Source of the DNA: an uncultured Bacteroidia bacterium
Lineage (GTDB): Bacteria > Bacteroidota > Bacteroidia > JANWVE01
Length of the DNA stretch: 64,000 bases
Assembly: GCA_938028625.1 (NCBI GenBank)
Contig: CALIZB010000003.1
Span: forward strand, 12,103-76,102
Direction: 5' to 3'
Part shown: in pieces, positions 2,651-29,324 of the stretch
How the letters are laid out: each line of letters begins with the position of its first letter
Position numbering within the stretch: position 1 is the first letter of the stretch
The notes under the pieces: model-generated
What the model saw: only the letters and a program-made list of their open reading frames with translations
Databases searched by the model: none
Told to the model about the DNA's origin: nothing
Position numbers and translations under genes: made by a program

Positions 2651-4345
2651 ATGCTGACTGCTATTAAAATTAAGAATTTCAAGGTATTTGAAGAAACAGA
2701 CTGGATACCTATTCAAGGCAATGTTGTATTTATCGGACCTAATAATTCAGGTAAAACCACTATTCTACAAGCTTTGTCTTTATGGCACTATGGCTTACAA
2801 AAATGGATATCGCAAAGAAAAAATAGTAAAGCCGTTAGCGCAGTAGTAATGAATAGAAAAGATTTATATGCTATACCTATTTTACATTCAAGGCATATAT
2901 GGAACAGGTTTTTTACACATAAATCTCAAAAAAATACAAATCAAAAAAGTAAAACTGCACTTTTTAATAACATAGAAATTAGCGTAAAAGGTATCCATGA
3001 GAATAAAGAATGGACTTGTACTCTTGAATTTAGATACAATAGTTCAGAAACTATTTATACAAAACTGATTGAAAAATCATTAGATTATGACGTATTAGAA
3101 AAAATTCAGATTGCTTTTTTACCCCCTATGTCGGGGCTAAAATTGGAAGAGGAAAAGTTATTATTTTCTACCGTAGAAGCAAGAATAGGTGAAGGTAGAA
3201 CTGCCGAAGTACTTGGTAATTTATTTTATCAGGTATGTTATCCTGAGTCTGATGTACTGCGAAAAAATAGAAACCCTGAGGAAGATTGGAAATATATTCA
3301 ACAAACAATCAAAGAATGGTTTAATGTAGAACCTCAAAAACCTGAAATAGACAGCAGAGGTGCTATAAAAATAAAATACATCAATGCTGATAAAATTGAA
3401 ATGGAAATCAATTCAGCAGGTAGAGGTATGCAACAAATTTTACTTTTACTCTCCTATCTAATGCTGAAGCCTAATACAGTATTTTTATTAGATGAACCTG
3501 ACGCACATCTTGAAATTCTTAAGCAAGAACAGATATACAAGTTACTCTCTCATTTAGCAAAAGAAAAAAAATCTCAAATTTTAATAGCTAGTCATTCAGA
3601 GGTAGTCTTAAATCAAGCCGCTTCTAACCAAGATACTGTAATTGCAGTTCTACCTTTTAGCAAACCTGTCGTAATGGAAAAAACTAGCCATATTCTCAAA
3701 TCTCTCAAAACTATTCCGATTAGTGAATACTATTTAGCTCAACTCAGAGGCTGGATTTTATACACAGAAGGTACTACTGACCGGAATATCTTAATAAAAT
3801 TCGCAGAAAAATTAAATCACTCTGTTTTACCTTACTTAAAAAATTGTTTTCACAAACCTTTGAATATCAATGACCCTAATAAAGCTCGTGAACATTTCTC
3901 TGCTTTACAATCCGCATACCCTAAACTGATAGGCATTGCTGTATATGATAACATCTCTAATTCCCTAAATACCATGTCTGGACTTTACGAGGATATGTGG
4001 CGCAAACGTGAAATAGAAAATTATTTTTATAGTCAAGATACTTTATTAAAATGGGCATTAGGTAAGCAAAACGATTTATTCGCTTCTAATAATGAGAAAG
4101 CTATTCAGGACGCATTAGATGATGTATTGACAGGTGCGGCTAAAAAAAACCCAAAAGATGAGTATTGGAATACTTGTAAAGCAAGTGAAGAAATAGAAAA
4201 AATACTAAGAAAATACTATGAAAACCTTAACATATATGGAAATACTTCAAAAAATAATTTTATAGAATTGATAGATTATCAATGTGAATTTGACCCTGAG
4301 ATTACAGAGAAATTAAACTTCATTTATGAACATATACCCAAATAA
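2651..4345 (+). CDS. Fused ABC-type ATPase (AAA_15/AAA_21) plus C-terminal Toprim-like (DUF4435/DUF4276-like) domain. Candidate class-1 OLD-family nuclease or fused PARIS AriAB-like defence protein.
   Basis: Walker A is GPNNSGKTT, Walker B with D-loop is VFLLDEPDAHLE, and the H-loop is IASHSEV. The C-terminal half carries a Toprim-type acidic motif WILYTEGTTDRNIL, similar to CEGKTEQNF of the DUF4276 protein at 18828. It then has AVYDN and REIENYFY. It is a single gene wedged between two peptidase genes with 18-bp and 51-bp spacers. Confidence 0.6.
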   Translation: MLTAIKIKNFKVFEETDWIPIQGNVVFIGPNNSGKTTILQALSLWHYGLQKWISQRKNSKAVSAVVMNRKDLYAIPILHSRHIWNRFFTHKSQKNTNQKSKTALFNNIEISVKGIHENKEWTCTLEFRYNSSETIYTKLIEKSLDYDVLEKIQIAFLPPMSGLKLEEEKLLFSTVEARIGEGRTAEVLGNLFYQVCYPESDVLRKNRNPEEDWKYIQQTIKEWFNVEPQKPEIDSRGAIKIKYINADKIEMEINSAGRGMQQILLLLSYLMLKPNTVFLLDEPDAHLEILKQEQIYKLLSHLAKEKKSQILIASHSEVVLNQAASNQDTVIAVLPFSKPVVMEKTSHILKSLKTIPISEYYLAQLRGWILYTEGTTDRNILIKFAEKLNHSVLPYLKNCFHKPLNINDPNKAREHFSALQSAYPKLIGIAVYDNISNSLNTMSGLYEDMWRKREIENYFYSQDTLLKWALGKQNDLFASNNEKAIQDALDDVLTGAAKKNPKDEYWNTCKASEEIEKILRKYYENLNIYGNTSKNNFIELIDYQCEFDPEITEKLNFIYEHIPK

Positions 4346-8311: not shown

Positions 8312-10042
8312 TTACACCTCTTCCCAATATATTTTATCTTTAACAATTACTACTGCTATTGATTTTAATTTTTGAAGGGTTTTAAGTTCTGCGTCTACCG
8401 TTAAATACTTTTTGAGCTGGTTTTTGGCTAATTCCATAATTTTTGATAACCTACTTTCTTCGCTTTGTTTTAGATACTTGATTTCTAACACATATTGATA
8501 CGGTTCTGCGGATAAATCAGAACGTTTTAGAACTTCTAAATCTAGGTATCCTTCATTTTTTACCTCTCGCTCTGAACGAATGTAATAAAATGAAGCATGA
8601 TGTAAATATGCCATCATTAACGCTTTTATGTATTTTTCATCAAATCTTTGATAATCCCGATTAGATAAGTTTTCTAATATACGCTGTATCTCCTTAAAAA
8701 ATAATTCTATATTCCCATACGCGCATGCTTCTACACTCTTTTCTATGCTGTTAGTGTCATATTTGAGTATCGCTTTTTCTTGTATCACTAACGCATAATA
8801 CTGCCAAAATAAACGCCCTATCACAAAATTAGGTATCATAAAATTAGGATAACCAGTCTGAGCATCTATTCCAGATAAAGTTAAATTTCCAAGATAATAT
8901 AAAAAATTGATAAATGCGGTTCTATCAAATGGTTTTTCAAATAAAAATTGATATAACAATGGACAACTAATTTTATCATTTTCTAAAATTTCTTGTAATA
9001 CTTCTATATTCTCTGCATAGTTTGCTACCTCAAACAGCTTCATTAACTTACCATAATCAGGCATAATGTTAGGGTCTAACATCTCTCTCGGATAAGATTG
9101 TTTGTACTTAAAAGCATCTAAAAAATATAAAACCATATCGGGATTATAGAGAGTATGAGTTATTTCTGGATTAAACTTATATCCATTATACCATTTTCTT
9201 AAATCATTCATTATTCTGTCTTTTTGGTTATTATCAATTAAAACTAATTCTAAAAAATCTTTTACTTCATCTTCTACAAAACCAAGCATATCATGAAATA
9301 CCTCATTATTAGACAAGTGTTTTCCAATATTAAATCCGCTGGTAAGACTATCCATGGTCATAGGGGATACTCCTGTAATGAAAAATCTATCTACTATACC
9401 CTGTTGTGTGGCTATTTTTAGAGTTTCATAAAACTTACGAACATACCCATTTTGAGATACAGAACGCTTGAACTCTGCTAAATCACGTACTAATATCTCA
9501 TTCGTAAAATGTTCATATTCATCTATTATTACATATATGGGTGTGCTATCGTTATTTTGTTTTTGCCATGCATCATAATACTCAAAAAAATTATCCATTA
9601 AGTTAGCAGGAGAACTAGATAATAAAATACTCTCAACAATATCAGCACAAAATAAATTATACCGATACATAAAATTTTTGAGAGTATGTTTTAACTTGCT
9701 TAAAAAGTATTTGTAAGTATGTTCTTCTGTTTGTGTGTCAATACCACTGAAATCAAATTTTAATACTCGGTATTGATTAGCTAATGAAGTAGGATTTTTT
9801 CCAATGTAATACTTTGAAAAAATACCTTGAAAGTTGTTCTTTTCTAATATATCATAATAATACTCCAATATAGATACAAAAAGACTTTTTCCAAATCGCC
9901 GAGGTCGTAAAAAAATCACGTATCTTTCTTCCTCTTCAAGTTGTTCTATATACTTTGTTTTATCTACAAAAACATAGTTGTTTTTTGTAAGTTGTGCAAA
10001 ATTACTGATACCATACGGAAATTTTATACGCGGTCTATCCAT
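8312..10042 (-). CDS. Predicted AAA-ATPase (PF09820-like) fused to a C-terminal PD-(D/E)XK nuclease domain (PDDEXK_9-like).
   Basis: The N-terminal signature is YGISNFAQLTKNNYVFVDKTKYI...FLRPRRFGKSLFVSILEYYY. The C-terminal region has E/D/K residues (YVLEIKY). This architecture is common and multi-copy in Bacteroidota. The stop abuts the convergent TIGR02757 gene with zero gap. Confidence 0.7.
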   Translation of the reverse strand: MDRPRIKFPYGISNFAQLTKNNYVFVDKTKYIEQLEEEERYVIFLRPRRFGKSLFVSILEYYYDILEKNNFQGIFSKYYIGKNPTSLANQYRVLKFDFSGIDTQTEEHTYKYFLSKLKHTLKNFMYRYNLFCADIVESILLSSSPANLMDNFFEYYDAWQKQNNDSTPIYVIIDEYEHFTNEILVRDLAEFKRSVSQNGYVRKFYETLKIATQQGIVDRFFITGVSPMTMDSLTSGFNIGKHLSNNEVFHDMLGFVEDEVKDFLELVLIDNNQKDRIMNDLRKWYNGYKFNPEITHTLYNPDMVLYFLDAFKYKQSYPREMLDPNIMPDYGKLMKLFEVANYAENIEVLQEILENDKISCPLLYQFLFEKPFDRTAFINFLYYLGNLTLSGIDAQTGYPNFMIPNFVIGRLFWQYYALVIQEKAILKYDTNSIEKSVEACAYGNIELFFKEIQRILENLSNRDYQRFDEKYIKALMMAYLHHASFYYIRSEREVKNEGYLDLEVLKRSDLSAEPYQYVLEIKYLKQSEESRLSKIMELAKNQLKKYLTVDAELKTLQKLKSIAVVIVKDKIYWEEV

Positions 10043-10153
10043 TGAAACAAAAATAGTAAAATTTAGAAACTATGGAGTAATGAAATTAAAAAGCCGCCAT
10101 TGCTGACGGCTATACATTATTACTTTAGCGTAATGGTTACTTATCTTGTTCTC

Positions 10154-12268
10154 TTACTGTATTAGCACAGGCAAGGTTTTAACTTCATTACCCATTCTTA
10201 CTTTGACAAAGTAAGTACCTTTTTCCTGTACCGCAGGTATAGTAATACTTTGATTACCATGAATAAGATTTATGTTTTGTTGATATACTAATTGTCCAAT
10301 AGTAGAATAAATCTTTACTTCACCGTCTTGTGATTGGGTAGAGAATAAACCGATATTCCAGTTGTCATAGTGCAATACAGGATTAGGATACACCCATGCG
10401 TCATTTTGCTCACCTGAAATAATCACTTCTTTGGCATCACTGAATACAAAAGAACCATCTTTATTGACTACTCTCAAACGATATAAAATGGGACTGTCAT
10501 ACAAATTAGGCTTTTTATCTACAAATTGATACTGTTCTGTACCATTAACAGACACTTCGCCAATGGTTTCAAAAGTATTTCCCCTATCTAAACTTTTTTC
10601 TATAACATAATGTGTAACTTCGGATAAATCTTTGGTTTTCCAGTGTAATACTGCACCGCCTTTTTGGGAATATGCATTAAAATTAAGTTGCTCAACAGGC
10701 AAGGCACATACCACTACTACATTTTGTGTAATGGTATTGGGACAGTTTGTAACAGGGTCTGTAACGGTTAAGGTTACGGTGTAAGTACCTGCACTAGTAT
10801 AAGTATGAGTTTGGGAATTGCTTGCACCAATGCCAAAACCTGGCGCACTGATGTCTCCCCAAGACCACAGGTAAGAAGTCAAAGCATTTCCTTGACAAGA
10901 ACCTCCGATAAGTGTACAAGCAAAACCGCAGGCAACCACTCCAAGCCCGTTACAACTCGTTAATAAAGTAGAAGTACTTGTAAAGTTAATAGGTGTGCCA
11001 CAGGCTACGGGAGAAGCAGGAGAATAGGTGAAGTTTGCGGTGGGTGCATCTTTTACAGTAATCGTAACGGATGCTGTTTGTACGCATGTTCCACTAGTAA
11101 CAGTTACATTATAGGTATGCGTACCTGTAGTAGAAAGCGTTTGAGTTAACGTCTGACCTGTTCCTATTACCGTAGGAGAGGGGCTTTTTGTCCAGGAGTA
11201 AGAAGTTGCACCGCCAGGATATGCTGTTAAGGTAAAAGCTGAATTTTTACATACATTAGAGGGGGCATTTATACTGGCAGGAGGAGGAGTAGCGGTAAAA
11301 TTGAGGGTAGTATTTACAGGGGTAAAGTTACCGCATAAATCTTGAAGAGTATTGCCGTCTGTACCTGTTTTAATAGTAAGCGTATAAGGACTTCCTATGG
11401 TTAAAGCAGGGGTAAAGTTAATAGTAATTTGAGAAGTCTGTGTACCGCATAAAACACCTGAGGCACTGGTTACAGTAAAAGGACCGCCAGGACCTGAAAT
11501 AAGAAAATCTGAACCATTACTGGCTATGGTAGAACATAATACAGCTTCACTCATTTGTAAAGTTAGAGTACCTACCCCACAGGGAGTAACCGTAGAAACA
11601 GGCATAGGAGGAACATTATCAAATATTACAGCAGTAGAAGGGCTAAAATCTAAGGTATAACCGTTCTGGGACTGACTGTAATTGTCTATAACGAGAACAT
11701 AAGTCTGTCCTGCGGTTACGGGTAAAATCGTACTAAATCTTGGTCCTGATGCGGGTTCAGAAGGATTAGTACCTGCGGAACTCAATCCTGTTACGCCGGG
11801 GTCTGCGGAGAAATTACAGCGTACTTCGGGTGCGGCACCTGTTACAATATCTGAACAGTTTTTACCTGTCATGTTATAGAGTGCAAAATCATAATCTTCA
11901 CTCATATTCACGGGGGTAATGTTAAAAGCAAGATTTCCTGAGGTTTGTATGGTAAGAATGTACCATACACTGTTTCTTTCTCTTACTCCCAGACAAGAAC
12001 TGGTAGGCACTTCTTGCTGACTGCCATATCCTGTATAAGAATTAGGCTGATTGTAAATATTTTGACATACAGGAATAGCATTAGGGCAATCTTGCTCAGG
12101 TCCCGTGATAGCTGTTTTAGCAATCTGTGCGGTATTAGGCATGTATTTAGCCGCTTCTTTTTCTGCAATTCTTTTTTGCAGTTCTTCTTTACTGATGCTC
12201 TGTGCAAAGATAGGTTCAGATACTGTAAGCAAGAGCAATAGGCTGGATAGTATAATGACTTTTTTCAT
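10154..12268 (-). CDS. Secreted cell-surface protein with a T9SS type-A C-terminal sorting domain.
   Basis: It has a signal peptide, T/S/G-rich beta-rich repeats, and a C-terminus ...VYPNPVLHYD...GTYFVKVRMGNEVKTLPVLIQ typical of a Por secretion CTD. Confidence 0.7.
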   Translation of the reverse strand: MKKVIILSSLLLLLTVSEPIFAQSISKEELQKRIAEKEAAKYMPNTAQIAKTAITGPEQDCPNAIPVCQNIYNQPNSYTGYGSQQEVPTSSCLGVRERNSVWYILTIQTSGNLAFNITPVNMSEDYDFALYNMTGKNCSDIVTGAAPEVRCNFSADPGVTGLSSAGTNPSEPASGPRFSTILPVTAGQTYVLVIDNYSQSQNGYTLDFSPSTAVIFDNVPPMPVSTVTPCGVGTLTLQMSEAVLCSTIASNGSDFLISGPGGPFTVTSASGVLCGTQTSQITINFTPALTIGSPYTLTIKTGTDGNTLQDLCGNFTPVNTTLNFTATPPPASINAPSNVCKNSAFTLTAYPGGATSYSWTKSPSPTVIGTGQTLTQTLSTTGTHTYNVTVTSGTCVQTASVTITVKDAPTANFTYSPASPVACGTPINFTSTSTLLTSCNGLGVVACGFACTLIGGSCQGNALTSYLWSWGDISAPGFGIGASNSQTHTYTSAGTYTVTLTVTDPVTNCPNTITQNVVVVCALPVEQLNFNAYSQKGGAVLHWKTKDLSEVTHYVIEKSLDRGNTFETIGEVSVNGTEQYQFVDKKPNLYDSPILYRLRVVNKDGSFVFSDAKEVIISGEQNDAWVYPNPVLHYDNWNIGLFSTQSQDGEVKIYSTIGQLVYQQNINLIHGNQSITIPAVQEKGTYFVKVRMGNEVKTLPVLIQ

Positions 12269-12448
12269 AGGTTAAACTTTTTTCAGGTAATGGTTTTATA
12301 TTTCAAAATACAGGTACAAAAGTATTCTGTTATTAAACTGTGTAAAAGGGTGCTACCCCCTCAAAATAAATTTATGGTAAACTTATAGTTACGAATTACG
12401 TTTAATGAAGGTTAAACAGTACTTGGGAGATAGAAAAATGAAATCAGC

Positions 12449-12487
12449 ATAAAAAAACCTGTAAGACTTTTTTAGAGCTTACAGGTT
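12449..12487 (-). terminator. Rho-independent terminator downstream of gyrB.
   Basis: The stem is aacctgtaag / cttacaggtt (10 bp) with a 12-nt loop. On the minus strand it is followed by a T-run. Confidence 0.6.
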
Positions 12488-12507
12488 TCAGAGTTTTCAT
12501 ACAAAGT

Positions 12508-14466
<1,959 letters not shown>

Positions 14467-14697
14467 TCACAAAACAGCCAAATTAAAGTATAACTTTTTA
14501 GCTTTGATAATCAGAAAGATAGAAAAATGATTTTTGAATAATTTTAGCCAATTGCAGATAAAATTTTGACTGATGCCTACAAGTATAGCTGGATTGTCTT
14601 TTTTTAATGTATCACTGCTTTACTAATTTCTGCACATTGCACCCCTTCAATTTTACAAAATAAAGTTAGCATAAGAACTGTCAGAATTTATCACTCT

Positions 14698-15300
14698 CTA
14701 TTGTTGATTTGATAAAAAACGCTGCATATACTTGCCCAATATATCAAATTCTATATTGACTTTGTCCCCTACCTGCAAGGTATGGATATTCGTATGTTCA
14801 TAGGTATAAGGAATAATACACACGGAAAACGTATTTTTTTCTGCACTCACTACGGTTAAAGATATGCCATTAACCGCAATAGAACCTTTTTTTACTACAA
14901 GAGGAATGTATTTTTCATCATATTCAAAAAGATAGGTCCAACTGCCTTGATGAGATTGTATGTCTAATACGGTTGCCATAGTATCTATGTGTCCTTGTAC
15001 AAAATGCCCATCAATACGTTGATTAGCAAGCATACTGCGCTCTATATTTACTTTATGTCCTACGTTCCAATATTGTAAAGTAGTACGAGAGAGTGTTTCT
15101 TCAATAGCTGTTACTTGATAGGTGTTATTTAGAGCATCAATGTTTATTACGGTAAGACAAACACCGTCATGCGCTACGGATTGGTCAATTTTGAGTTCTT
15201 TACTTATATCAGAATACAAGGTAAAAGTCTTGTTTGTACCTTCCGAGAGAATGCCTTTTACTACGGCATAACTTTCAATAATTCCTGTAAACATACACAA
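14698..15300 (-). CDS. ribE: Riboflavin synthase alpha subunit.
   Basis: MFTGIIE...GVCLTV...GHFVQGHID are the duplicated lumazine-binding repeats. The true start is probably the second Met at 15294. Confidence 0.9.
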   Translation of the reverse strand: MCMFTGIIESYAVVKGILSEGTNKTFTLYSDISKELKIDQSVAHDGVCLTVINIDALNNTYQVTAIEETLSRTTLQYWNVGHKVNIERSMLANQRIDGHFVQGHIDTMATVLDIQSHQGSWTYLFEYDEKYIPLVVKKGSIAVNGISLTVVSAEKNTFSVCIIPYTYEHTNIHTLQVGDKVNIEFDILGKYMQRFLSNQQ

Positions 15301-15350
15301 AAGTAGATAATTTGTAACGAAAGTAACACACTTGACGAGGTTTATATGCG

Positions 15351-15358
15351 TATATTTG
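15351..15358 (+). promoter_or_regulatory. TAnnTTTG -7 box (tatatttg) for the tauE-like / MBL-rhodanese operon.
   Basis: The motif lies 18 nt upstream of ATG 15376, in the divergent ribE / tauE intergenic region. Confidence 0.3.
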
Positions 15359-15375
15359 CATTGTAATAATCACTT

Positions 15376-16191
15376 ATGGAGATTTTAGGATACATAATCG
15401 CATTATTTATAGGAGTTTCGCTTGGCTTGACGGGGAGTGGTGGTAGTATTTTAATGTTACCTGTATTAGTCTATCTTTTTGGCGTAGAAATACTTCAAGC
15501 TACTACTTATTCTTTGTTTGTGGTAGGTATTACCAGCATTACAGGGTTAGCAAAGTATATCAAAGAAAAATCTATTCATAGTGCATCAATTATTGCATTT
15601 GGCATACCTTCTTTATTGTTAATAACCATTACACGCAGATACATCACGCCTGAAATACCTGAAAATATATATCTCTCAGACAGCATAATTATCAGCAGAC
15701 ATATTCTGCTGATGACTTTATTTTCATTACTGATGATAATAGCTTCATTAAAGTTTATTCGTAAAAAAGAAAACGATAAGATTGAGGAAAATACTTGCAC
15801 ACGCGCACAAAATTATTTTTTGAAGTTAAGTATAGCAGGAATAGTAGTTGGATTTTTAACAGGGCTTCTAGGTATAGGTGGAGGGTTTTTAATTATTCCT
15901 GCATTAGTTACCTTTGTGCATTTAGATATGAAAAAAGCCATAGGAACTTCTTTATTCTTAATTACTATCAATTCTATAATAGGCTTTTTAAGCGAAAAAC
16001 ATTTTCAGAATATGGACTGGAGGTTATTAGTCAGCATAACGCTTATTTCTATAATAGGAATGATAATAGGAAGTAGTTTGGTCAAAAAAGTAAATACCAA
16101 GCAGTTAAAACTAATTTTTGGTTGGTTTATTTTGAGCATGGGAGTATTTATCATATTCAAAGAAATTATTGTATATTCGTACCATAAATAA
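15376..16191 (+). CDS. TauE/SafE (DUF81) family sulfite/anion exporter membrane protein.
   Basis: The 271-aa polytopic membrane protein has two internal repeats with Gly-rich TM helices (GSGGSILMLP, GIGGGFLIIPAL). Confidence 0.7.
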   Translation: MEILGYIIALFIGVSLGLTGSGGSILMLPVLVYLFGVEILQATTYSLFVVGITSITGLAKYIKEKSIHSASIIAFGIPSLLLITITRRYITPEIPENIYLSDSIIISRHILLMTLFSLLMIIASLKFIRKKENDKIEENTCTRAQNYFLKLSIAGIVVGFLTGLLGIGGGFLIIPALVTFVHLDMKKAIGTSLFLITINSIIGFLSEKHFQNMDWRLLVSITLISIIGMIIGSSLVKKVNTKQLKLIFGWFILSMGVFIIFKEIIVYSYHK

Positions 16192-16200
16192 ACATAGATT

Positions 16201-17613
16201 ATGAACATAGAACAAATATATACGGGCTGTTTAGCTCAAGGCGCTTACTACATCACCTCTGATGGGGAAGCCGCTATCATTGACCCTTTACGGGAAATCA
16301 AGCCTTATTTGGATAGAATTGCCAAAGATGGAGTAAAGTTAAAATACATCTTTGAAACCCACTTTCATGCAGATTTCGTATCAGGACACTTGGATTTGAA
16401 TAAAGCCACAGGTGCGCCCATCGTATACGGACCTACGGCTAAACCCGAATTTGATGCCATTATCGCGACCGATGGACAAGAGTTTAGGATAGGTAAAATT
16501 ACCATAGTAGTTTTACACACGCCAGGGCATACCTTAGAAAGTTCTACTTATCTGCTTAAAGATGAAAATGGCAAACCACATTGTATTTTCTCAGGAGATA
16601 CCTTATTTCTTGGTGATGTCGGTAGGCCTGACCTTGCGCAAAAAGCCGCACACATGACACAAGAAGAACTTGCAGGCTTGCTGTATGATAGCTTGATGAA
16701 CAAAATTATGCCTTTACCTGATGAGATTATTGTTTATCCTGCACACGGCGCAGGTAGCGCGTGCGGCAAAAACATGATGAAAGAAACCGTGGATACTCTA
16801 GGCAATCAAAAAAAGGTAAATTATGCGCTCAAACAACCCAATAAAGAAGCTTTTATTAAAGCTGTTTTAGATGGTTTGCTTCCACCGCCCAAGTACTTTG
16901 GTATGAACGTAGCTATGAATAAACAAGGTTATCAAAATTTTGATACGGTTCTCAAAAAAGGACTTAACCCTATTGACCCAAAAAATTTTGAAAGCATAGT
17001 AGAAGCCACGAATGCACTTATCTTGGATACCCGCCCTGCATCAGAATTTTATCAAGGTTTTATACCTAATAGCATCAATATCGGCTTGAAAGGAGATTTT
17101 GCCCCCTGGGTAGGTGCTATGATTATAGATGTCCAACAACCTATTGCATTAGTTTGTGTACCAGGTACAGAAGAAGAAGCTATTACAAGATTAAGTCGTG
17201 TAGGTTTTGATAATGTAATAGGTTACCTTGATGGTGGTTTTGAAGCATGGAAAAACGCAGGATTAGAAATAGATACCGTTAATAGAATTACCGCCACACA
17301 GTTTGAACAGCAAGTAAATATAAACAAAGACCTTATTATTGATGTGCGCAAACCGTCTGAATACGAAGCAGAACACGTAGAAAATGCAGAAAATAAATCT
17401 CTGGATTTTATAAACGAATGGATAAAAGACCTTAACCCCGATACACATTTTTATATTCACTGTGCAGGCGGATACCGCAGTATGATAGCCGCAAGCATCT
17501 TGCAATCTCGGGGATACAGAAATTTTACTGAAATAGAAGGTGGTTTTAATGCTATAAAAAACACAAAAATTCCTGTAACTAACTTTGTCTGTCAAAGTAA
17601 AAACAAAGTATAA
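16201..17613 (+). CDS. MBL-fold persulfide dioxygenase-like hydrolase fused to rhodanese (sulfurtransferase) domains.
   Basis: The metallo-beta-lactamase motif is HFHADFVSGH, and the C-terminal rhodanese has active-site CAGGYRS. It sits 10 bp after the tauE-like gene, forming a sulfur-handling operon. Confidence 0.8.
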   Translation: MNIEQIYTGCLAQGAYYITSDGEAAIIDPLREIKPYLDRIAKDGVKLKYIFETHFHADFVSGHLDLNKATGAPIVYGPTAKPEFDAIIATDGQEFRIGKITIVVLHTPGHTLESSTYLLKDENGKPHCIFSGDTLFLGDVGRPDLAQKAAHMTQEELAGLLYDSLMNKIMPLPDEIIVYPAHGAGSACGKNMMKETVDTLGNQKKVNYALKQPNKEAFIKAVLDGLLPPPKYFGMNVAMNKQGYQNFDTVLKKGLNPIDPKNFESIVEATNALILDTRPASEFYQGFIPNSINIGLKGDFAPWVGAMIIDVQQPIALVCVPGTEEEAITRLSRVGFDNVIGYLDGGFEAWKNAGLEIDTVNRITATQFEQQVNINKDLIIDVRKPSEYEAEHVENAENKSLDFINEWIKDLNPDTHFYIHCAGGYRSMIAASILQSRGYRNFTEIEGGFNAIKNTKIPVTNFVCQSKNKV

Positions 17614-17618
17614 TGCTC

Positions 17619-17684
17619 AAACCTATAAGGTTTTGTAAAATTAAACAAGTAATTTTGAACTATAAGACCTTATAGGTTTTTAAT
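17619..17684. terminator. Long inverted repeat / bidirectional terminator-like hairpin at the left edge of the ATPase-DUF4276-IS1 insertion.
   Basis: aacctataaggtt at about 17622 and its inverted partner accttataggtt at about 17669 are followed by ttttt. They give a roughly 12-13 bp stem with a roughly 34-nt AT-rich loop. Confidence 0.45.
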
Positions 17685-17718
17685 TTTATGCTAAATTTGC
17701 TTTAAAGACCTTTTATGT

Positions 17719-18831
17719 ATGCCCATAGATAGAATATCCGTATACAATTTTAAGTCTATTCAAGAGCTTGAAAATTTTAGCATTAAACCTATAAATATAC
17801 TCATAGGGGCTAATGGTGCAGGAAAAACAAATTTTATTGAGTTTTTCAAGCTATTACACCACATATATCAAAAACGATTACAATTTTACACTGCTCAGAA
17901 TGGTTATGCAGATAGAATATTATTCATGGGTAGAAAAAAATCTTCATTTTTAGGTGGAGAGATTATTTTTAGACCTGATGCAAAAAGCAATACATCTAAC
18001 ACTTATAAATTCAAAATTGTACCACAGACACATGCAGATAACTTTTATTTCGAGGAAGATTTGGCAGGATATAACATATATGCTATGGGATATAATGAGT
18101 CTTGGGACTATAAAAACGCAGGTGGAGAAGGTAAGTTAGAAAGTGAAATAATACATAACTATGAACTTACACGCATGGATTTTTTGCGAAACTACTTCAA
18201 TACATTCAGAATTTTTCATTTTCATGATACTACCCCTAATTCCCCCCTAAAACAACCTTGTAACATAGAAGATAACGAATATCTCAAAGAAAATGGAAGT
18301 AATCTTTCGGCTTTTTTATATTCTATCAGGCATACTTCTGAGTTTAATATGATACAGTACACCATTCAAAGTATAGCACCATTTTTTGAACGCTTTGAAC
18401 TATACCCCAGTGCCAAAAATGAAAATATGATTTCACTCAATTGGGTACACAAAAATGCTGAAAATTATTTCAATGTACATAGTCTCTCTGATGGCACATT
18501 AAGGTTTATTGCCTTGACTACGTTGCTTTTACAGCCTAATCCACCTAAAACTATCATTATTGATGAACCTGAATTAGGTTTACATCCTACTGCTATTTAC
18601 AAATTAGGAGAAATGATAAAAATGGCATCTACAAAATCTCAGGTTATCGTTTCTACACAATCACCGTATTTGGTAGATATATTTGAACCCGAAGATATTA
18701 TTGTAGTAGAGAGAGAAAATAACCAAAGTATATTTAATCGTTTATCTCGTTTGGAATTGGCAGAATGGTTAGAAAAATACACTATTAGTGAACTTTGGGA
18801 TAAAAACATTATAGGAGGACTTCCCCGATGA
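17719..18831 (+). CDS. AAA_21-type ABC ATPase (an OLD/PARIS AriA-like ATPase component).
   Basis: Walker A is GANGAGKTN, the signature-like motif is LSDGTLRFIAL, and Walker B with D-loop is IIIDEPELGLHP. A Q-for-H H-loop is VIVSTQSP. The stop overlaps the downstream ATG (ATGA), indicating translational coupling. Confidence 0.8.
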   Translation: MPIDRISVYNFKSIQELENFSIKPINILIGANGAGKTNFIEFFKLLHHIYQKRLQFYTAQNGYADRILFMGRKKSSFLGGEIIFRPDAKSNTSNTYKFKIVPQTHADNFYFEEDLAGYNIYAMGYNESWDYKNAGGEGKLESEIIHNYELTRMDFLRNYFNTFRIFHFHDTTPNSPLKQPCNIEDNEYLKENGSNLSAFLYSIRHTSEFNMIQYTIQSIAPFFERFELYPSAKNENMISLNWVHKNAENYFNVHSLSDGTLRFIALTTLLLQPNPPKTIIIDEPELGLHPTAIYKLGEMIKMASTKSQVIVSTQSPYLVDIFEPEDIIVVERENNQSIFNRLSRLELAEWLEKYTISELWDKNIIGGLPR

Positions 18832-19432
18832 ACCCTATTTATGTACTTTGTGAAGGAAAAACAGAGCAAAATTTTGTCAATCAAATTTTGGGAGAGTATT
18901 TGTATAATAAATACCAAATAGAACGTATCTATGGTATTATGGCAAATACAAGCAAAAACGCAAAGGGCGGTAGTTTATCTTATTCTAGGTATAAAAATGA
19001 AGTTCAGGATTTGTTAAAAAGAGAGGAAAATGCCATAATAACTTCTCTGATAGATTATTACAAATTACAGACGGATTTTCCTGATTATACTGCCATACAA
19101 AGCACAAATATTCAGGATAAAGCAGAGAAAGTTTCGCAATTAGAGCAGTCCATAGCAAGAGATATTAAGCATAAACGCTTTTTACCTTATATTCAGTTAC
19201 ATGAATTTGAGGCTTTATTATTCTCTTCTATAAATGGTTTTGATAACCTTGTTGGCTTAGATTTAAAGAAGAAAAAACAGATAGAGAAAATAATAACTTC
19301 ATATCATAATCCTGAATATATCAATGACGGTCAGGATACACACCCGTCAGCAAGGTTAAGCTAACTTATTCAAGGATATAGAAAACTGCTATTTGCAGAG
19401 CAAATTATTAAGCAAAGTGGTATGGATAGTAT

Positions 19433-20181
19433 GGTATTGCTAATTTAGTATAGTTTTTTTTATTTTGCAACTTTATTACTCTAATTCATTTGACTATGAA
19501 GACATGCCCAAAATGTAAATCTATTAATTTCTGTAAAGATGGTATAGTAAAACAAAAACAGCGTTTTAAATGCAAAGATTGTAATTTTCGCTTCACCGTG
19601 CAAGAAGTAGGAAAACCTGCTATCCTTAAAAGAAACGCCTTAACTTTATATCTTGAAGGTTTAGGGTTTCGCTCTATTGGGAGACTTTTGGGTGTCAGTA
19701 ATGTAACAGTTATGAACTGGATAAAATCTTTTGGAGAAAAAATTGATGAATTAAGAAATAATTCAGATATTGAAATTGTGGAGATTGATGAATTGCATAC
19801 CTTTATCGGTTCAAAAAAAAGTATCAATGGATTTGGATTGCTGTTGATAGAAATGGGCATCAATTCATCACTTGTGAAATTGGCAGTAGAGGAACAGAGA
19901 CAGGGGAAAAACTTTGGAAAAGAATTGAAAGTAAAATAAAAGATAAAGTATGTACTGATTATTGGAACGCATATGAAAAATTTGTTCCAAAAGAAAAGCA
20001 CGTACAAAGTAAAAAAGAAACATTTACAGTAGAAGGATATAACAGTCTCTTTCGGCATTTTTTAGCGCGTTTAAGGAGAAAAACAAAATGTTATTCAAAA
20101 TCACTAACAATGCTTCTACATTCTGTAAAATTATTAATGTTCAAATGGAATAACGATTTATCTATACTTTTTTAGCAATAC
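19433..20181 (+). mobile_element. IS1-family insertion sequence (749 bp) with 21-bp imperfect terminal inverted repeats and an 8-bp target-site duplication (gatagtat).
   Basis: IRL is ggtattgctaatttagtatag (19433..19453). IRR is ctatacttttttagcaatacc (20161..20181). The direct repeat gatagtat flanks both ends (19425..19432 and 20182..20189). Inside is an InsA-like zinc-finger/HTH ORF and an InsB-like DDE ORF in the -1 frame. Confidence 0.85.
19490..20172 (+). CDS. insAB: IS1 transposase InsAB', produced by a programmed -1 frameshift at the A8 run 19813..19820. InsA alone is 19490..19939.
   Basis: InsA has the zinc-finger CPKCKS...CKDC and an HTH. The -1 frame reads KKKYQWIWIAVDRNGHQFITCEIGSRGTETGEKLW...HVQSKKETFTVEGYNSLFRHFLARLRRKTKCYSKSLTMLLHSVKLLMFKWNN. 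This aligns with E. coli IS1 InsB (QRWLFYAYD...[39 protein letters not shown]). Confidence 0.8.
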
Positions 20182-20301
20182 CGATAGTATTTTACAGCGT
20201 TGCTGTCGTTTTAGAGAGTGGGTAAAAAAGTTAGTAGAGTATTCTAATAAGAAATTTTGATTGCATTGTGCTAATTTTACCTTGTTTTATCTATCTTAAA
20301 A

Positions 20302-23300
20302 TTACAGTCTATTCGCTAATACGCACACTAACTTATATTTTTTATGCTTGCCATTCTGACCATCACTGGTTTCTACCCAAACAATGTAAATGCCCATTCT
20401 GCATTTTTCGTTTTCTTCATTAGTACCGTCCCAGGTAAAAAAACTCGGTTCTGTGCCAACCAGTTCATTTTCTTTGAGTTTGCGTACTAATCTGCCTTGT
20501 GCATCAAAAATGTAAATGCGTAAAGTAGTAGGTTGATTAAAATTGTAATGTATTTGTAAAAAATCATCTCTGCCATCATTATCGGGGGAGAATACTTTGG
20601 GCGATAAAGAAACGCCTTCATTTTCATTAACTAACACTCTTTGGCTATTTTCATACCCAGGTGTACCAAATCCTGCGGTAGAAGCGGCACTATGCCAATT
20701 ATCTTTACTGTTTGTACGTTGTGAAAAACTTAATCTTTCCAAAGCCACCCCATCTTGGCTGACTAACGTAGGTACATGCCAATCCTTGTAATAGCGTAAA
20801 GTATCTATCCATAGCCCTTGATTGCTTATGATAGCACACCCCCCTTTGCTGTCATCATAAGTAGGAAAAGAACTCATTTTGAATAAAGCATTAGGATTTT
20901 TTACCTTGTATCTTGCTTTGATAAAAGCAATATCAGCACTCATACAAAAATATTGCTGTGGTAAAAGAATACGGCTTTGGTTAGTAATCGTTTTTATATT
21001 ATAGATACTATCTTTATCCATGTCTAATTCTGCAATTTTCCAATTTTTAAGGTCTATGGCTTTATCTGAATTATTGTAAATCTCTACATAATCCGAACCA
21101 TTAGTATAAGGATTAAATAAAATTTCATTGATGATAATATCCCCTGGATGCGCGGTGCGCGGAATAAGTATGGTTAGAGTATCTTTTACGATATTCCCAC
21201 TACAATCTCTTGCACCATTTATAATGAGTTGATAGGCTTGCATACTATCTAATGAGGTAGCTAAATTCAATGTCATTTTTTGTAAATCAGGCGAAGAGAG
21301 TGCTATACTTTGTGGATTTCCAATACCGTTGTTAATGCTATAAAATGCAGTATTTACAGATAAAGCACTGTCTAATGGTTCATTAAATTGAATTTCTAAT
21401 ATAGTTGGACTAATAACTCCAAAAAATGTAATTTTAGGAATTTGTGTATCTGGACTATTAGCGGCTACACTGTTTATTTTACCCGGTGTTCCCCCTGTGA
21501 GTGAATTGCTAGCTCGCCAGTTATCACCACTGCGGCAGGGTGTATTCTCGTCTATCATTTCTAAACTGTATCCGCCATTTTTTTTAACATCATCTTTGTA
21601 CCAATCCAAAGTAAAATTAAGTTTATGAACAATAGCATTTTTTTCGTTCTTTAAAACTAGTACTTCACCATCATTGCTAATGCTCGGAAAACTACTTACA
21701 CCAAGTACTTGTCCATAAGTACTAAATAAAGGCGCATTAGTAGTAGAAGTGAGAATTAAAAAGGAATCAGGTCTAAGCGTGTAATTAGGTAAAGTAGCTG
21801 TATTGTTATCGTTGCTTATTTTCCAACCTGATAGATTAAACGTTTTAGTAGAACGATTTTTGATTTCTATGTATTCCGCATTAGGAAGTCCTACTACGGG
21901 CGTAGGGTCTGCCATGAATTCTGAAATAATTACATCATACAATTGTGCTACACGCGGAAATTCAAAAGTTAAAACTTGATTAGTGAGGTTATTAGAACAG
22001 TCTTTTACATTATTAACAGTAAGTTGATACGTTTTAGTAGTATCAAAAGTAGCTGTAAAAGTAAGTGTAACCGTAGTAAAATTGGCATCTATGTTTATAC
22101 TATTAGGGTTGCCTATTCCAAAATTGACAACATAATTTGAAGGATTAACCGCAGATAGGCTATCTAAAGGTTCATTAAATAAGAGTTCTAATTTGTTTAG
22201 GGTAGTAGGTGTAAGTTGTATTACGTTAGGTGCAGTATTATCGGGGTTAGATGCGTTAACGCTATTAAGTTGTCCAGGTGTGCCGCCTTGCGCGTGTGTA
22301 GAAGCTATCCAATTAGCAAAACCTACACAAGGAAAGTTTGTATCTATCATTTCTAAACTATACCCGCCGTTTTTCTTAACATCATTTTTGTACCAAGTAT
22401 TACTATAAGTCAATTTATGAATAATGTTTCCGTTATTATCTCGCAAGGTTAAAGTTTCTCCTGAATTATTCAGACTTGGGAAGGAAGTTACTCCTAACGT
22501 ACTTCCAAAAGTAGAAAACGTGGCTACATTAGTAGTACTGCATAAAATTAAGCGTTGTCCTGGATTAAGCGTATAACTTGCCAGAGTAGCCGTAGACGTA
22601 TTATCAGATAACTTCCAACCTATTAGGTTAAGTGTTTTTGTAGAACGATTAAATATTTCTAAATATTCAGCATTAGGAAGTCCTACGGGAGGGTCTGGGT
22701 CTGCCATGATTTCTGTAAAAATAACATCATAGAGTTCAGGTACAACATACATAAATGTAGCAGTATTGCTTGTACCAATAGTATTTCCTGCTAAATCTTG
22801 GATATTAAAACAGGTTACGGTATAATTGATGTTAGCAGTAAGCGGAGTAGACAAGGTTAAATGTACTAATTTAGGATTTCCAATGTCTAAATTAGCAGTA
22901 GCAGGTGTGCCTATGCCCCCACTGATAGAATAATTTGTGGGTACATTTGTAGTGCTAGTTTTAAGGTTCTCATTAAATAACAAATCTATTTCTGTGGGGC
23001 TTATAACTGTGGCAGAGAGTAATTCGGGGGGTGTAGTATCTACTACGATGGGTCCTACATATACATCATCAAGGTAAAATTTAGTAGCGTTACTTATAGT
23101 ATATTGACAGTACCAACCCACATAGCTTGTTGAAGTATGGGTATTATCTAATACTGTACCTTGCGAAACAAAAAATGCACCTGTACCTGTGGTATCAGCG
23201 AGGAGTTCCCAATTACCGATATTATCACGAGTTACTTTGAGTTTAACAAGGTTATTTGTTTTAGCTACCGTACCAGGTATACCTGCAATGATACGTGTAC

Positions 23301-23727
23301 GCGTAGTACCTGTTTGTTTATAGAGAGAAATAGTATCCGTACTTCCTGTACTACCCCCTAACTGTACATAATATCCGTTTAATGGCGTTTTAAGGTCTGC
23401 TTGGTCAGAAACAAGGTAAAAACGGCAAAAATTAGATGTGCTGGGTGAAAATGCAAAGCGTATCCAGACATTCCATTCGGTATTATTTATAGCCGTGTTT
23501 GCAGTAGCCAATGAGGAGGAACCTGCCACAGTAGCATTACTTTGTAATTGAAAACTTGTATTAACTTGAAAATTAGCTACATCACCTACCCATGCAGGCG
23601 AGGAGGTAAAGTTCCCATCACTAAAATCATCATATACTTGCGCGTAAATTGAATTTGAATAGAAAAAAAGTAGCAAGAAGACTATACAAATATCTTTCAT
23701 GCTACGAATATATATTTTTTTTGACAA
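20302..23727 (-). CDS. Large secreted protein (1141 aa) with repeated lamin-tail (LTD) domains and a T9SS type-B (gliding-motility CHU_C-like) C-terminal sorting domain.
   Basis: It has a signal peptide, two near-identical LTD modules (LYDVIFTEIMADPDPPVGLPNAEYLEIFNRS... and LYDVIISEFMADPTPVVGLPNAEYIEIKNRS...) and a third degenerate one. The C-terminus is FSPDNDGRDDFLQIHYNF... Confidence 0.7.
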   Translation of the reverse strand: MSKKIYIRSMKDICIVFLLLFFYSNSIYAQVYDDFSDGNFTSSPAWVGDVANFQVNTSFQLQSNATVAGSSSLATANTAINNTEWNVWIRFAFSPSTSNFCRFYLVSDQADLKTPLNGYYVQLGGSTGSTDTISLYKQTGTTRTRIIAGIPGTVAKTNNLVKLKVTRDNIGNWELLADTTGTGAFFVSQGTVLDNTHTSTSYVGWYCQYTISNATKFYLDDVYVGPIVVDTTPPELLSATVISPTEIDLLFNENLKTSTTNVPTNYSISGGIGTPATANLDIGNPKLVHLTLSTPLTANINYTVTCFNIQDLAGNTIGTSNTATFMYVVPELYDVIFTEIMADPDPPVGLPNAEYLEIFNRSTKTLNLIGWKLSDNTSTATLASYTLNPGQRLILCSTTNVATFSTFGSTLGVTSFPSLNNSGETLTLRDNNGNIIHKLTYSNTWYKNDVKKNGGYSLEMIDTNFPCVGFANWIASTHAQGGTPGQLNSVNASNPDNTAPNVIQLTPTTLNKLELLFNEPLDSLSAVNPSNYVVNFGIGNPNSINIDANFTTVTLTFTATFDTTKTYQLTVNNVKDCSNNLTNQVLTFEFPRVAQLYDVIISEFMADPTPVVGLPNAEYIEIKNRSTKTFNLSGWKISNDNNTATLPNYTLRPDSFLILTSTTNAPLFSTYGQVLGVSSFPSISNDGEVLVLKNEKNAIVHKLNFTLDWYKDDVKKNGGYSLEMIDENTPCRSGDNWRASNSLTGGTPGKINSVAANSPDTQIPKITFFGVISPTILEIQFNEPLDSALSVNTAFYSINNGIGNPQSIALSSPDLQKMTLNLATSLDSMQAYQLIINGARDCSGNIVKDTLTILIPRTAHPGDIIINEILFNPYTNGSDYVEIYNNSDKAIDLKNWKIAELDMDKDSIYNIKTITNQSRILLPQQYFCMSADIAFIKARYKVKNPNALFKMSSFPTYDDSKGGCAIISNQGLWIDTLRYYKDWHVPTLVSQDGVALERLSFSQRTNSKDNWHSAASTAGFGTPGYENSQRVLVNENEGVSLSPKVFSPDNDGRDDFLQIHYNFNQPTTLRIYIFDAQGRLVRKLKENELVGTEPSFFTWDGTNEENEKCRMGIYIVWVETSDGQNGKHKKYKLVCVLANRL

Positions 23728-29057: not shown

Positions 29058-29130
29058 AGCGGAAGACGGGATTCGAACCCGCGACATTCACCTTGGCAAG
29101 GTGATGCTCTACCAACTGAGCTACTTCCGC
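29058..29130 (-). tRNA. tRNA-Gly (GCC).
   Basis: The reverse complement is GCGGAAGTAGCTCAGTTGGTAGAGCATCACCTTGCCAAGGTGAATGTCGCGGGTTCGAATCCCGTCTTCCGC plus discriminator T. It gives a cloverleaf with anticodon loop TTGCCAA. No CCA is encoded. Confidence 0.9.
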
Positions 29131-29137
29131 AAGAGTG

Positions 29138-29223
29138 TGCCGCAGGCGGGAATCGAACCCGCACCCGTATTACTACAGACAGGATTTTAAGTCCTGCGCG
29201 TCTACCTGTTCCGCCACCACGGC
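29138..29223 (-). tRNA. tRNA-Leu (TAA), type II with a long variable arm.
   Basis: The reverse complement is GCCGTGGTGGCGGAACAGGTAGACGCGCAGGACTTAAAATCCTGTCTGTAGTAATACGGGTGCGGGTTCGATTCCCGCCTGCGGCA. The anticodon loop is CTTAAAA. Confidence 0.85.
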
Positions 29224-29251
29224 AAATACTCTTAATTCTCAAAGAACTTTG

Positions 29252-29324
29252 AGCAGAAGACGGGATTCGAACCCGCGACATTCACCTTGGCAAGGTGATG
29301 CTCTACCAACTGAGCTACTTCTGC
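29252..29324 (-). tRNA. tRNA-Gly (GCC), a second copy that differs from the first in the acceptor stem (GCAGAAG versus GCGGAAG).
   Basis: The body is identical to the first tRNA-Gly, and the acceptor base change is compensated on both strands of the stem. Confidence 0.9.

Follow-up and report, generated by a model that had tools for sequence, protein, structure and literature searches.

The subject of this report is a two-gene module in a stretch of 64,000 nucleotides from an uncultured Bacteroidia bacterium (contig CALIZB010000003.1, assembly GCA_938028625.1), which is called the window hereafter. The module consists of an ABC-type ATPase gene followed by a gene of the DUF4276 family, a putative Toprim nuclease gene, whose reading frame is broken by an in-frame stop codon and by an insertion sequence (IS) of the IS1 family. 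The ATPase falls into a cluster of four sequences at 90% identity, and the contigs of all four were recovered: the window itself and three others, named L001, L009 and L010. The parts of the module are listed here in the order of their coordinates, where HEC-01A and HEC-01B denote the two components of the candidate defence system to which the proteins are assigned below.

17719..18831, + strand: ABC-type ATPase gene (AAA_21/AAA_15; HEC-01A by profile match), 370 amino acids (aa), frame intact
18828..19364, + strand: DUF4276 gene, putative Toprim nuclease (HEC-01B by profile match), codons 1-178 and premature stop; start in the ATGA overlap
19016..19020, + strand: run of five A (A5) in DUF4276 codons 63-65; in frame in the window, six A (A6, +1 frameshift) in L009 and L010
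19362..19364, + strand: nonsense TAA, codon 179; ancestral codon CAA (Gln), as judged from L010
19365..19432, + strand: in-frame DUF4276 sequence behind the stop, codons 180-201 and two bases of codon 202
19425..19432: left copy of the target-site duplication, GATAGTAT, 8 bp; single in L010 at 1884-1891
19433..20182, + strand: IS1-family element, 750 bp, inside codon 202
20183..20190: right copy of the target-site duplication, GATAGTAT, 8 bp
20191..20260, + strand: 3' remnant of the DUF4276 gene, third base of codon 202, codons 203-224 and TGA

Structure of the module and length of the DUF4276 gene

The TGA of the ATPase gene and the ATG of the DUF4276 gene overlap as ATGA at 18828-18831 (CGATGAAC). 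The ATPase aligns with its residues 2-369 to positions 5-362 out of 363 in the PADLOC model HEC-01A (PDLC04175; E = 1.5e-131, 436.8 bits), and in Pfam it matches AAA_21 (1.2e-33) and also AAA_15. Its Walker A (GANGAGKT), signature (LSDGT), Walker B (IIIDEPELGLH) and H-loop (TQS) motifs are conserved among 32 homologues. The length of the protein is in line with that of its homologues (about 366-384 aa), of which more than 7,999 were matched at E <= 1e-20, mostly from Bacteroidota.

The DUF4276 gene starts with MNPIYVLCEGKTEQ and reaches the TAA after 178 codons. Beyond the stop the frame stays open up to 19432, reading LIQGYRKLLFAEQIIKQSGMDS; it is picked up after the IS as ILQRCCRFREWVKKLVEYSNKKF and ends with TGA at 20258-20260. 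Joining 19432 to 20191 restores the frame across the insertion (GMDS-I-LQRCCRFREWVKKLVEYSNKKF). A reconstruction was made in which the IS and one copy of the duplication are removed and codon 179 is set to X, which gives a protein of 224 aa. It matches the profile hidden Markov model (HMM) of DUF4276, PF14103, in one stretch over positions 1-191 out of 192 (E = 1.7e-46, 159.4 bits, cut-off 30.2), and the PADLOC model HEC-01B (PDLC04188) with residues 1-219 at positions 12-226 out of 230 (E = 5.4e-72).

In alignments of 28 and 61 sequences, the family-invariant residues E9, G10 and E13 (the EGxTE motif), D76 and H125-E126-F127-E128 lie within codons 1-178. Further invariant or near-invariant residues are still encoded past the two lesions, namely Y184, K186 and G190 between TAA and IS, and C206, F209 and W212 in the remnant behind the IS, while the column of codon 179 itself holds K, N, Q, G or S in the homologues. 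Among the 120 best homologues, 119 are 212-244 aa long and cover 94-99% of the 224-aa query; the sole short form is the window's own 178-aa product (P0001), which public records annotate as a DUF4276 protein. A family HMM built from 60 intact homologues scores the first 178 residues with 219.9 bits and the full reconstruction with 271.6 bits. The last 45 residues alone reach 37.8 bits, against 10.0 bits for the best of 500 shuffles, and the remnant behind the IS alone reaches 17.1 bits.

As judged by these comparisons, the TAA at 19362 is not the true end of the gene. Because the invariant residues behind it are undecayed and a 99.5%-identical allele has CAA at this place, the stop is very recent rather than an established gene end. 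Recoding or read-through of the TAA was ruled out, since TAA is an ordinary stop in the window, where it terminates 33 of the 42 long open reading frames (ORFs). The 178-aa DUF4276 protein in the public records, as well as an 85-aa ORF described below, are best read as pseudogene fragments, a point of caution for annotators.

The IS is bounded by terminal inverted repeats of the form GGTATTGCTAA-N3-AGTATAG with 18 of 21 positions identical (left repeat, IRL, 19433-19453; right repeat, IRR, 20162-20182), a pattern that has two matches in the window where none is expected. Its insA gene (19496..19939, 147 aa) is followed by an ORF in the -1 frame, with a run of eight A (A8, 19813-19820) as the frameshift site, and the stop of the fused InsAB' (20173-20175) lies inside IRR. 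Fused across A8, the transposase matches the NCBIfam model of the IS1 family, NF033558, over positions 1-199 out of 199 (E = 8.9e-63, 211.8 bits, cut-off 100), as well as DDE_Tnp_IS1 in Pfam (1.3e-18). The element thus resembles the IS1 family in its length of 750 bp, in inverted repeats starting with GGT, in the insA/insB' -1 frameshift on an A run, in a transposase stop inside the right repeat, in the full-length transposase match and in the 8-bp duplication, IS1 target duplications being expected at 8-9 bp. It differs in that it shares only about 70% nucleotide identity with its nearest annotated copies, which on searching the plasmid collection proved to be IS1-family transposase genes of Tenacibaculum.

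A scan of genome contigs with the left end of the IS found the same left terminus, starting with GGTATTGC, next to four unrelated flanks at contig ends (L005-L008). Because the identical terminus occurs at four other junctions, the boundary of the IS is confirmed and the element is repeated elsewhere. The genome of the window itself was not among the contigs returned, and the four junctions speak for the terminus of the IS, not for its copy number in that genome. These four contigs come from metagenome-assembled genomes of SRP290908 labelled Roseobacteraceae and Rickettsiales, with a flank GC of 33-44%. The element may be widespread across taxa, or the bins may hold Bacteroidota contigs.

Near-identical alleles and their lesions

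L010 (ENA ERZ6863697, 5257 bp) is 99.5-99.6% identical to window positions 17566-19432 and 20183-23556. Since its two alignments overlap by 8 bases, a single copy of GATAGTAT without the IS, L010 represents the empty site. It carries C at 19362, and the ancestral codon 179 is therefore taken to be CAA (Gln). In the A run at 19016-19020, L010 has A6 where the window has A5. The resulting +1 frameshift yields an 85-aa product, which is listed in public gene calls as an unannotated ORF. With one A removed, L010 encodes a 224-aa ORF that differs from the window reconstruction only at D97N and Q179. The extra A is also present in L009 (ERZ6864144), a syntenic contig of 66 kb with 99.8% identity that ends before the TAA site. 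A6 is thus found in two separate assemblies, linked to the shared single-nucleotide polymorphisms (SNPs) 18246 and 19116.

Over 4066 bp, the third contig, L001 (Logan ERR9287890), shows 4 SNPs relative to the window; it has T at 19362, i.e., TAA. One of its ends coincides with 19432, directly in front of the IS, and the other, 15367, abuts position 15366, which is polymorphic between the window and L009. Because one end lies at the IS junction and the other beside a polymorphic site, both look like branch points of a mixed population, and alleles with and without the IS presumably co-occur in the L001 sample. SNPs 18035 and 16302 are common to both haplotype groups, which suggests recombination or homoplasy.

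The nuclease gene has been inactivated by at least two independent routes in one species, since the nonsense codon and the IS lie in one haplotype and the +1 frameshift lies in the other. Phase variation at the A5/A6 run was rejected as unlikely because the tract is very short.

Several of these results bear on an earlier note, made in a first reading of the window. Its description of an AAA_21 ATPase at 17719..18831, coupled via ATGA to a DUF4276-type gene with an EGxTE motif, is in good agreement with the coordinates, Pfam and PADLOC. The end that it gave, 20259, lies one base before the end of the stop codon. It had proposed that the frame continues beyond an in-frame TAA at 19362, for which both the 37.8 bits of the 45 residues behind the stop and the CAA of L010 speak; a downstream region devoid of DUF4276 likeness, which it had named as contrary evidence, was not what we found, none of the 500 shuffles scoring above 10 bits. 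An alignment of the 224-aa reconstruction with the DUF4276 HMM, which it had recommended, gave the PF14103 match over nearly the whole profile reported above. The IS1-family insertion with an 8-bp duplication and a resuming frame is corroborated by the NF033558 match and the empty site, and the notion of a decaying defence locus is strengthened by the independent frameshift in the sister haplotype, next to the nonsense codon and the IS in the window. A comparison with an uninterrupted strain, also recommended, succeeded in part: L010 provides the empty site and the CAA codon, but its gene is not intact.

Consequences for the module and rival explanations

An AlphaFold2 (AF2) model was made of P0002, the closest intact homologue (49% identity), with the 61-sequence alignment; its mean predicted local distance difference test score (pLDDT) is 94.1 and its predicted template modelling score (pTM) is 0.90. 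In the model, a helical domain of the OLD type follows the Toprim core; for the DUF4276 protein, this predicts a Toprim fold with a conserved Glu, acidic metal ligands and an OLD-like helical domain. A sequence search of the PDB with the DUF4276 profile gave nothing meaningful, and DUF4276 is tied to OLD, GajA and AriB through fold comparison only. The stop in the window corresponds to about residue 175 of P0002, and helices 183-194, 196-202 and 204-219 (about 20% of the fold) are lost. The IS falls in helix 196-202 and cuts off the terminal helix. What the 178-aa product retains are the acidic residues E9, E13, D76, E126 and E128, while K186, C206, F209 and W212 are lost.

In BpOLD, the helical domain contributes a metal-B ligand and, on its fifth helix (alpha5H), K562, a residue that processive cleavage requires. 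The amphipathic helix at the terminus lies against the Toprim sheet, and deletion of the helical domain abolishes nicking and cleavage, whereas mutants of K562 or of a single metal site still nick DNA (PMC6755086). In the P0002 model, K186 is found where the fifth helix of the helical region begins, and it may be the counterpart of K562. By analogy with BpOLD, the 178-aa product most likely does not fold or act normally and would be inactive, because the last three helices with their invariant residues are lost.

The reading frame of the ATPase is unbroken in all four alleles. Among them, 8 sites of the ATPase gene are polymorphic, 6 non-synonymous and 2 synonymous, whereas the flanking genes in the region 9719-23556 (coding for a PKD/T9SS protein (T9SS, type IX secretion system), TauE, an MBL-rhodanese protein and an 1141-aa protein) show 3 non-synonymous and 17 synonymous sites (Fisher p = 0.0048). 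Four of the six replacements lie at variable columns. The other two, D320V and I327F, both in L010, lie at conserved columns, where the window allele has the consensus residue. This pattern suggests relaxed constraint on the whole module; the earlier claim of an intact ATPase holds for its reading frame only, since the ATPase, too, seems to be under relaxed constraint. A search of phage records with the ATPase returned one weak match (26.7% identity) and gave no evidence of phage carriage.

The pairing of both genes extends well beyond the window. The ATPase lies directly upstream of DUF4276 in L002, L003 and L004, and a scan of metagenome contigs with the ATPase returned relatives at 35-39% identity only, of which 80 loci were surveyed, and did not find an intact allele of the window species. 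DUF4276 lies directly downstream on the same strand in all 79 loci that have downstream sequence, as a single intact ORF in 66, cut by the contig end in 4 and fragmented in 9. Fragmented DUF4276 beside a full-length ATPase match thus occurs in 9 of 75 assessable loci, a fraction of about 12% that is a hint only, as the survey is biased to intact ATPases and includes redundant and low-coverage contigs. These fragmented or internally deleted loci (L035, L037, L038, L050, L056, L071, L083, L085 and L088; mostly human gut) could reflect recurrent effector loss or assembly error.

Two arrangements among the relatives may be added. P0162 (592 aa, Logan) is a single polypeptide in which an HEC-01A-like ATPase, 59% identical to that of the window, is fused to DUF4276; because such a natural fusion exists, split and fused forms seem to interconvert in this family. 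In L004 (6665..9189, in a 3.26-Mb genome), an intact HEC-01 pair is followed by an overlapping 364-aa protein without Pfam match, a 467-aa AAA+ protein (AAA_2/ClpB-like) and then an ISL3 transposase, which may represent a larger defence cluster in that organism.

Taking all these facts together, the locus is very probably a copy of HEC-01, a candidate anti-phage system of two genes, that was pseudogenised recently. In the ancestral state, a 370-aa ABC ATPase (HEC-01A) would have been co-translated with a 224-aa DUF4276 nuclease (HEC-01B). Judging from PARIS, OLD and Gabija, the ATPase would act as the sensor of infection and control the metal-dependent Toprim nuclease, which in turn would damage DNA or RNA and abort the infection. 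In the window haplotype, a C-to-T exchange has turned Gln179 (CAA) into TAA and an IS1-family element sits inside codon 202, while in the sister haplotype the same gene was lost via the +1 frameshift in the A5 run. The ATPase has kept its frame, but its polymorphism shows a roughly neutral ratio of non-synonymous to synonymous sites (N:S). The present alleles are presumably null, and the whole module is probably non-functional and drifting.

Several points weigh against this reading. A fully intact allele (A5, CAA and no IS) was not found in any collection searched, and the ancestral state had to be reconstructed. Conservation and the comparison with BpOLD are the grounds for assuming loss of function; the gene still codes for all Toprim metal ligands, and residual nicking is possible. 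The structure model is that of a 49%-identical homologue and not of the window protein, and in it the equation of K186 with K562 follows from the order of helices, not from a superposition. The N:S contrast comprises 28 SNPs pooled over three comparators and could also reflect diversifying selection on the sensor, and the L001 sample may not be independent of the window source. Finally, the antiviral role of HEC-01 itself is weakly established: the first assays in E. coli showed no protection (bioRxiv 10.1101/2024.01.29.577857), and protection of E. coli against at least one coliphage was later seen with a cold-seep representative (bioRxiv 10.1101/2024.09.26.614923).

The loss of the nuclease might instead have been adaptive. 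If the Toprim effector were costly or self-toxic, loss alleles would be positively selected, and the ATPase would be kept, possibly for a role independent of the effector. All three disruptive lesions on the two haplotypes, which diverge by about 0.4%, fall in the 675-bp nuclease gene and none in the 1113-bp ATPase gene; chance by length gives (675/1788)^3, i.e., about 0.05, a value derived from three events. Within about 13 kb of aligned sequence no other indel and no other IS occurs, and the 9 of 75 metagenomic loci could be taken in the same sense, although that survey was chosen by good ATPase matches and so favours intact ATPases. Disruptive lesions, however, are visible only in dispensable DNA, so clustering there is expected, and the neutral-looking 6:2 ratio of the ATPase, with D320V and I327F at conserved columns, speaks against the ATPase having kept a function. 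We consider such an adaptive knockout possible but unlikely. More specifically, the nonsense codon and IS, the frameshift of the sister haplotype, the fragmented DUF4276 genes and the ATPase frame that is always kept could be read as repeated disarming of the effector, driven by selection against a self-toxic nuclease or by an effector-independent role of the orphan ABC ATPase, a reading that we hold to be distinctly unlikely.

It is very improbable that the TAA is a genuine stop, behind which the IS would lie harmlessly in a 3' non-coding remnant while the 178-aa product works as a short nuclease. The short product does keep its acidic residues and most of the family HMM score, and the nicking by BpOLD mutants is compatible with some activity. 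Yet every other protein among the 120 best homologues is of full length, the residues Y184, K186, C206, F209 and W212 are undecayed behind the stop, the near-identical allele reads CAA, and the lost helices include the terminal one, where truncation of the helical domain in BpOLD leaves neither nicking nor cleavage. Allele comparisons exclude a sequencing or assembly artefact, i.e., a miscalled base at 19362 combined with a chimeric join via the repeated IS, and we regard this account as extremely improbable. The source indeed appears to be a metagenome-derived assembly, in which repeats can give chimeric joins, but the T at 19362 recurs in the separately assembled L001, which differs at 4 other sites and whose ends fit the branching of filled and empty alleles. 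Moreover, a perfect 8-bp duplication that is single in L010 flanks the IS, and the reading frame resumes precisely past it.

Recent pseudogenisation of HEC-01 as the preferred explanation provides a base-pair view, with an empty-site control, of a candidate defence module lost in a wild Bacteroidota population. Its significance is limited. Three different lesions in the effector gene across two haplotypes of about 99.5% identity form a small, clean case of rapid defence-gene turnover, and there are hints that the nuclease is lost before the ATPase.

Other features of the window and relation to known defence systems

The module has a pair of TauE and MBL-rhodanese genes on one side and a large secreted-protein gene on the other, and no obvious defence island surrounds it in the window. 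A 19-nt inverted repeat (17619-17637 and 17661-17679) with 89% complementarity, a spacer of 23 nt and a AAACCTATAAGGTTT motif lies in the 105 bp that separate the MBL-rhodanese gene from the ATPase start; it might act as terminator for the upstream gene or as operator for the module. The GyrB encoded in the window shares 70-72% identity with named Bacteroidota of the Cytophagia type (Flexibacter, Flammeovirgaceae and Cyclobacteriaceae, for example) and reaches 97% with metagenomic proteins only, and T9SS sorting domains are present in the window; the host is taken to be an uncultured, Cytophagia-like member of the Bacteroidota. Three tRNA genes are clustered at 29058-29324 on the - strand (Rfam RF00005, 58-75 bits). 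The - strand also carries, at 8312..10042, a gene for a 576-aa protein with AAA-ATPase_like (PF09820) and PD-(D/E)XK PDDEXK_9 domains, for which PADLOC gave no match.

At 2651..4345 (+ strand) a 564-aa protein is encoded, which has an N-terminal AAA_21/AAA_15 ABC ATPase and a C-terminal region of about 240 aa without Pfam match. It was rejected as a fused ATPase-DUF4276 protein, because its C-terminal 244 aa show no DUF4276 match (Pfam E <= 1) and an hhalign probability of 0.3%; the fused version of the module that the earlier note had seen in the window is therefore not supported for DUF4276. Its best PADLOC matches are NsnB, AriA and a weak AriAB match that reaches into the C-terminal region (residues 273-492), and it may represent a merged PARIS-like or other ATPase-effector fusion. 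The 90% cluster of this protein contains a 505-aa variant, P0128.

The earlier note had also likened the module to PARIS and OLD. The pairing of an ATPase with a Toprim protein stands, whereas the family name has to be replaced, as PADLOC points to HEC-01 and the models of AriA, Mad3, AbiLi, NsnB, Old and GajA score far weaker. PARIS differs in its effector, with DUF4435 in AriB and DUF4276 in the window: the Pfam scan of the reconstruction gave DUF4276 only, and no AriB model is among the PADLOC matches of the reconstructed nuclease. The ATPase of 370 aa differs as well from AriA with its about 55 kDa, and a known trigger and a known tRNA target set PARIS apart from HEC-01. In OLD nucleases (classes 1-2) and in GajA of Gabija, ATPase and Toprim are fused, while they are two separate ORFs here, and a Toprim_OLD match in Pfam was not found for the module.

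A closer relation exists to Mad3-Mad4 of MADS, which likewise combine an ABC ATPase with a DUF4276 partner. DUF4276 has been placed in the Toprim superfamily, with Mad4 cited as its homologue (PMC12065111), and it is among the partners of AAA_15/21 defence ATPases (PMC11464382). The mad3 matches of the window ATPase are weak (PADLOC 4.8e-25), its 105.2 bits contrast with a cut-off of 420 in the NCBIfam model MAD3, and neither a methyltransferase nor other MADS genes lie beside the module. HEC-01 was described as a candidate system of ABC ATPase and TOPRIM found embedded in Hma/MADS (bioRxiv 10.1101/2024.01.29.577857), from which the window locus differs in that it is not embedded in such a system and in that HEC-01B is a pseudogene, with nonsense codon and IS, so that not both genes are intact. 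The module agrees with HEC-01 (PADLOC 'Hma-embedded candidate 01', Payne et al.) in that this system gives the best, full-length PADLOC matches for both proteins, the domain content is identical, and the genes are adjacent, overlapping and on the same strand. From its sequence, the module is best regarded as a pseudogenised member of this known candidate family, which would make neither its mechanism nor its family new.

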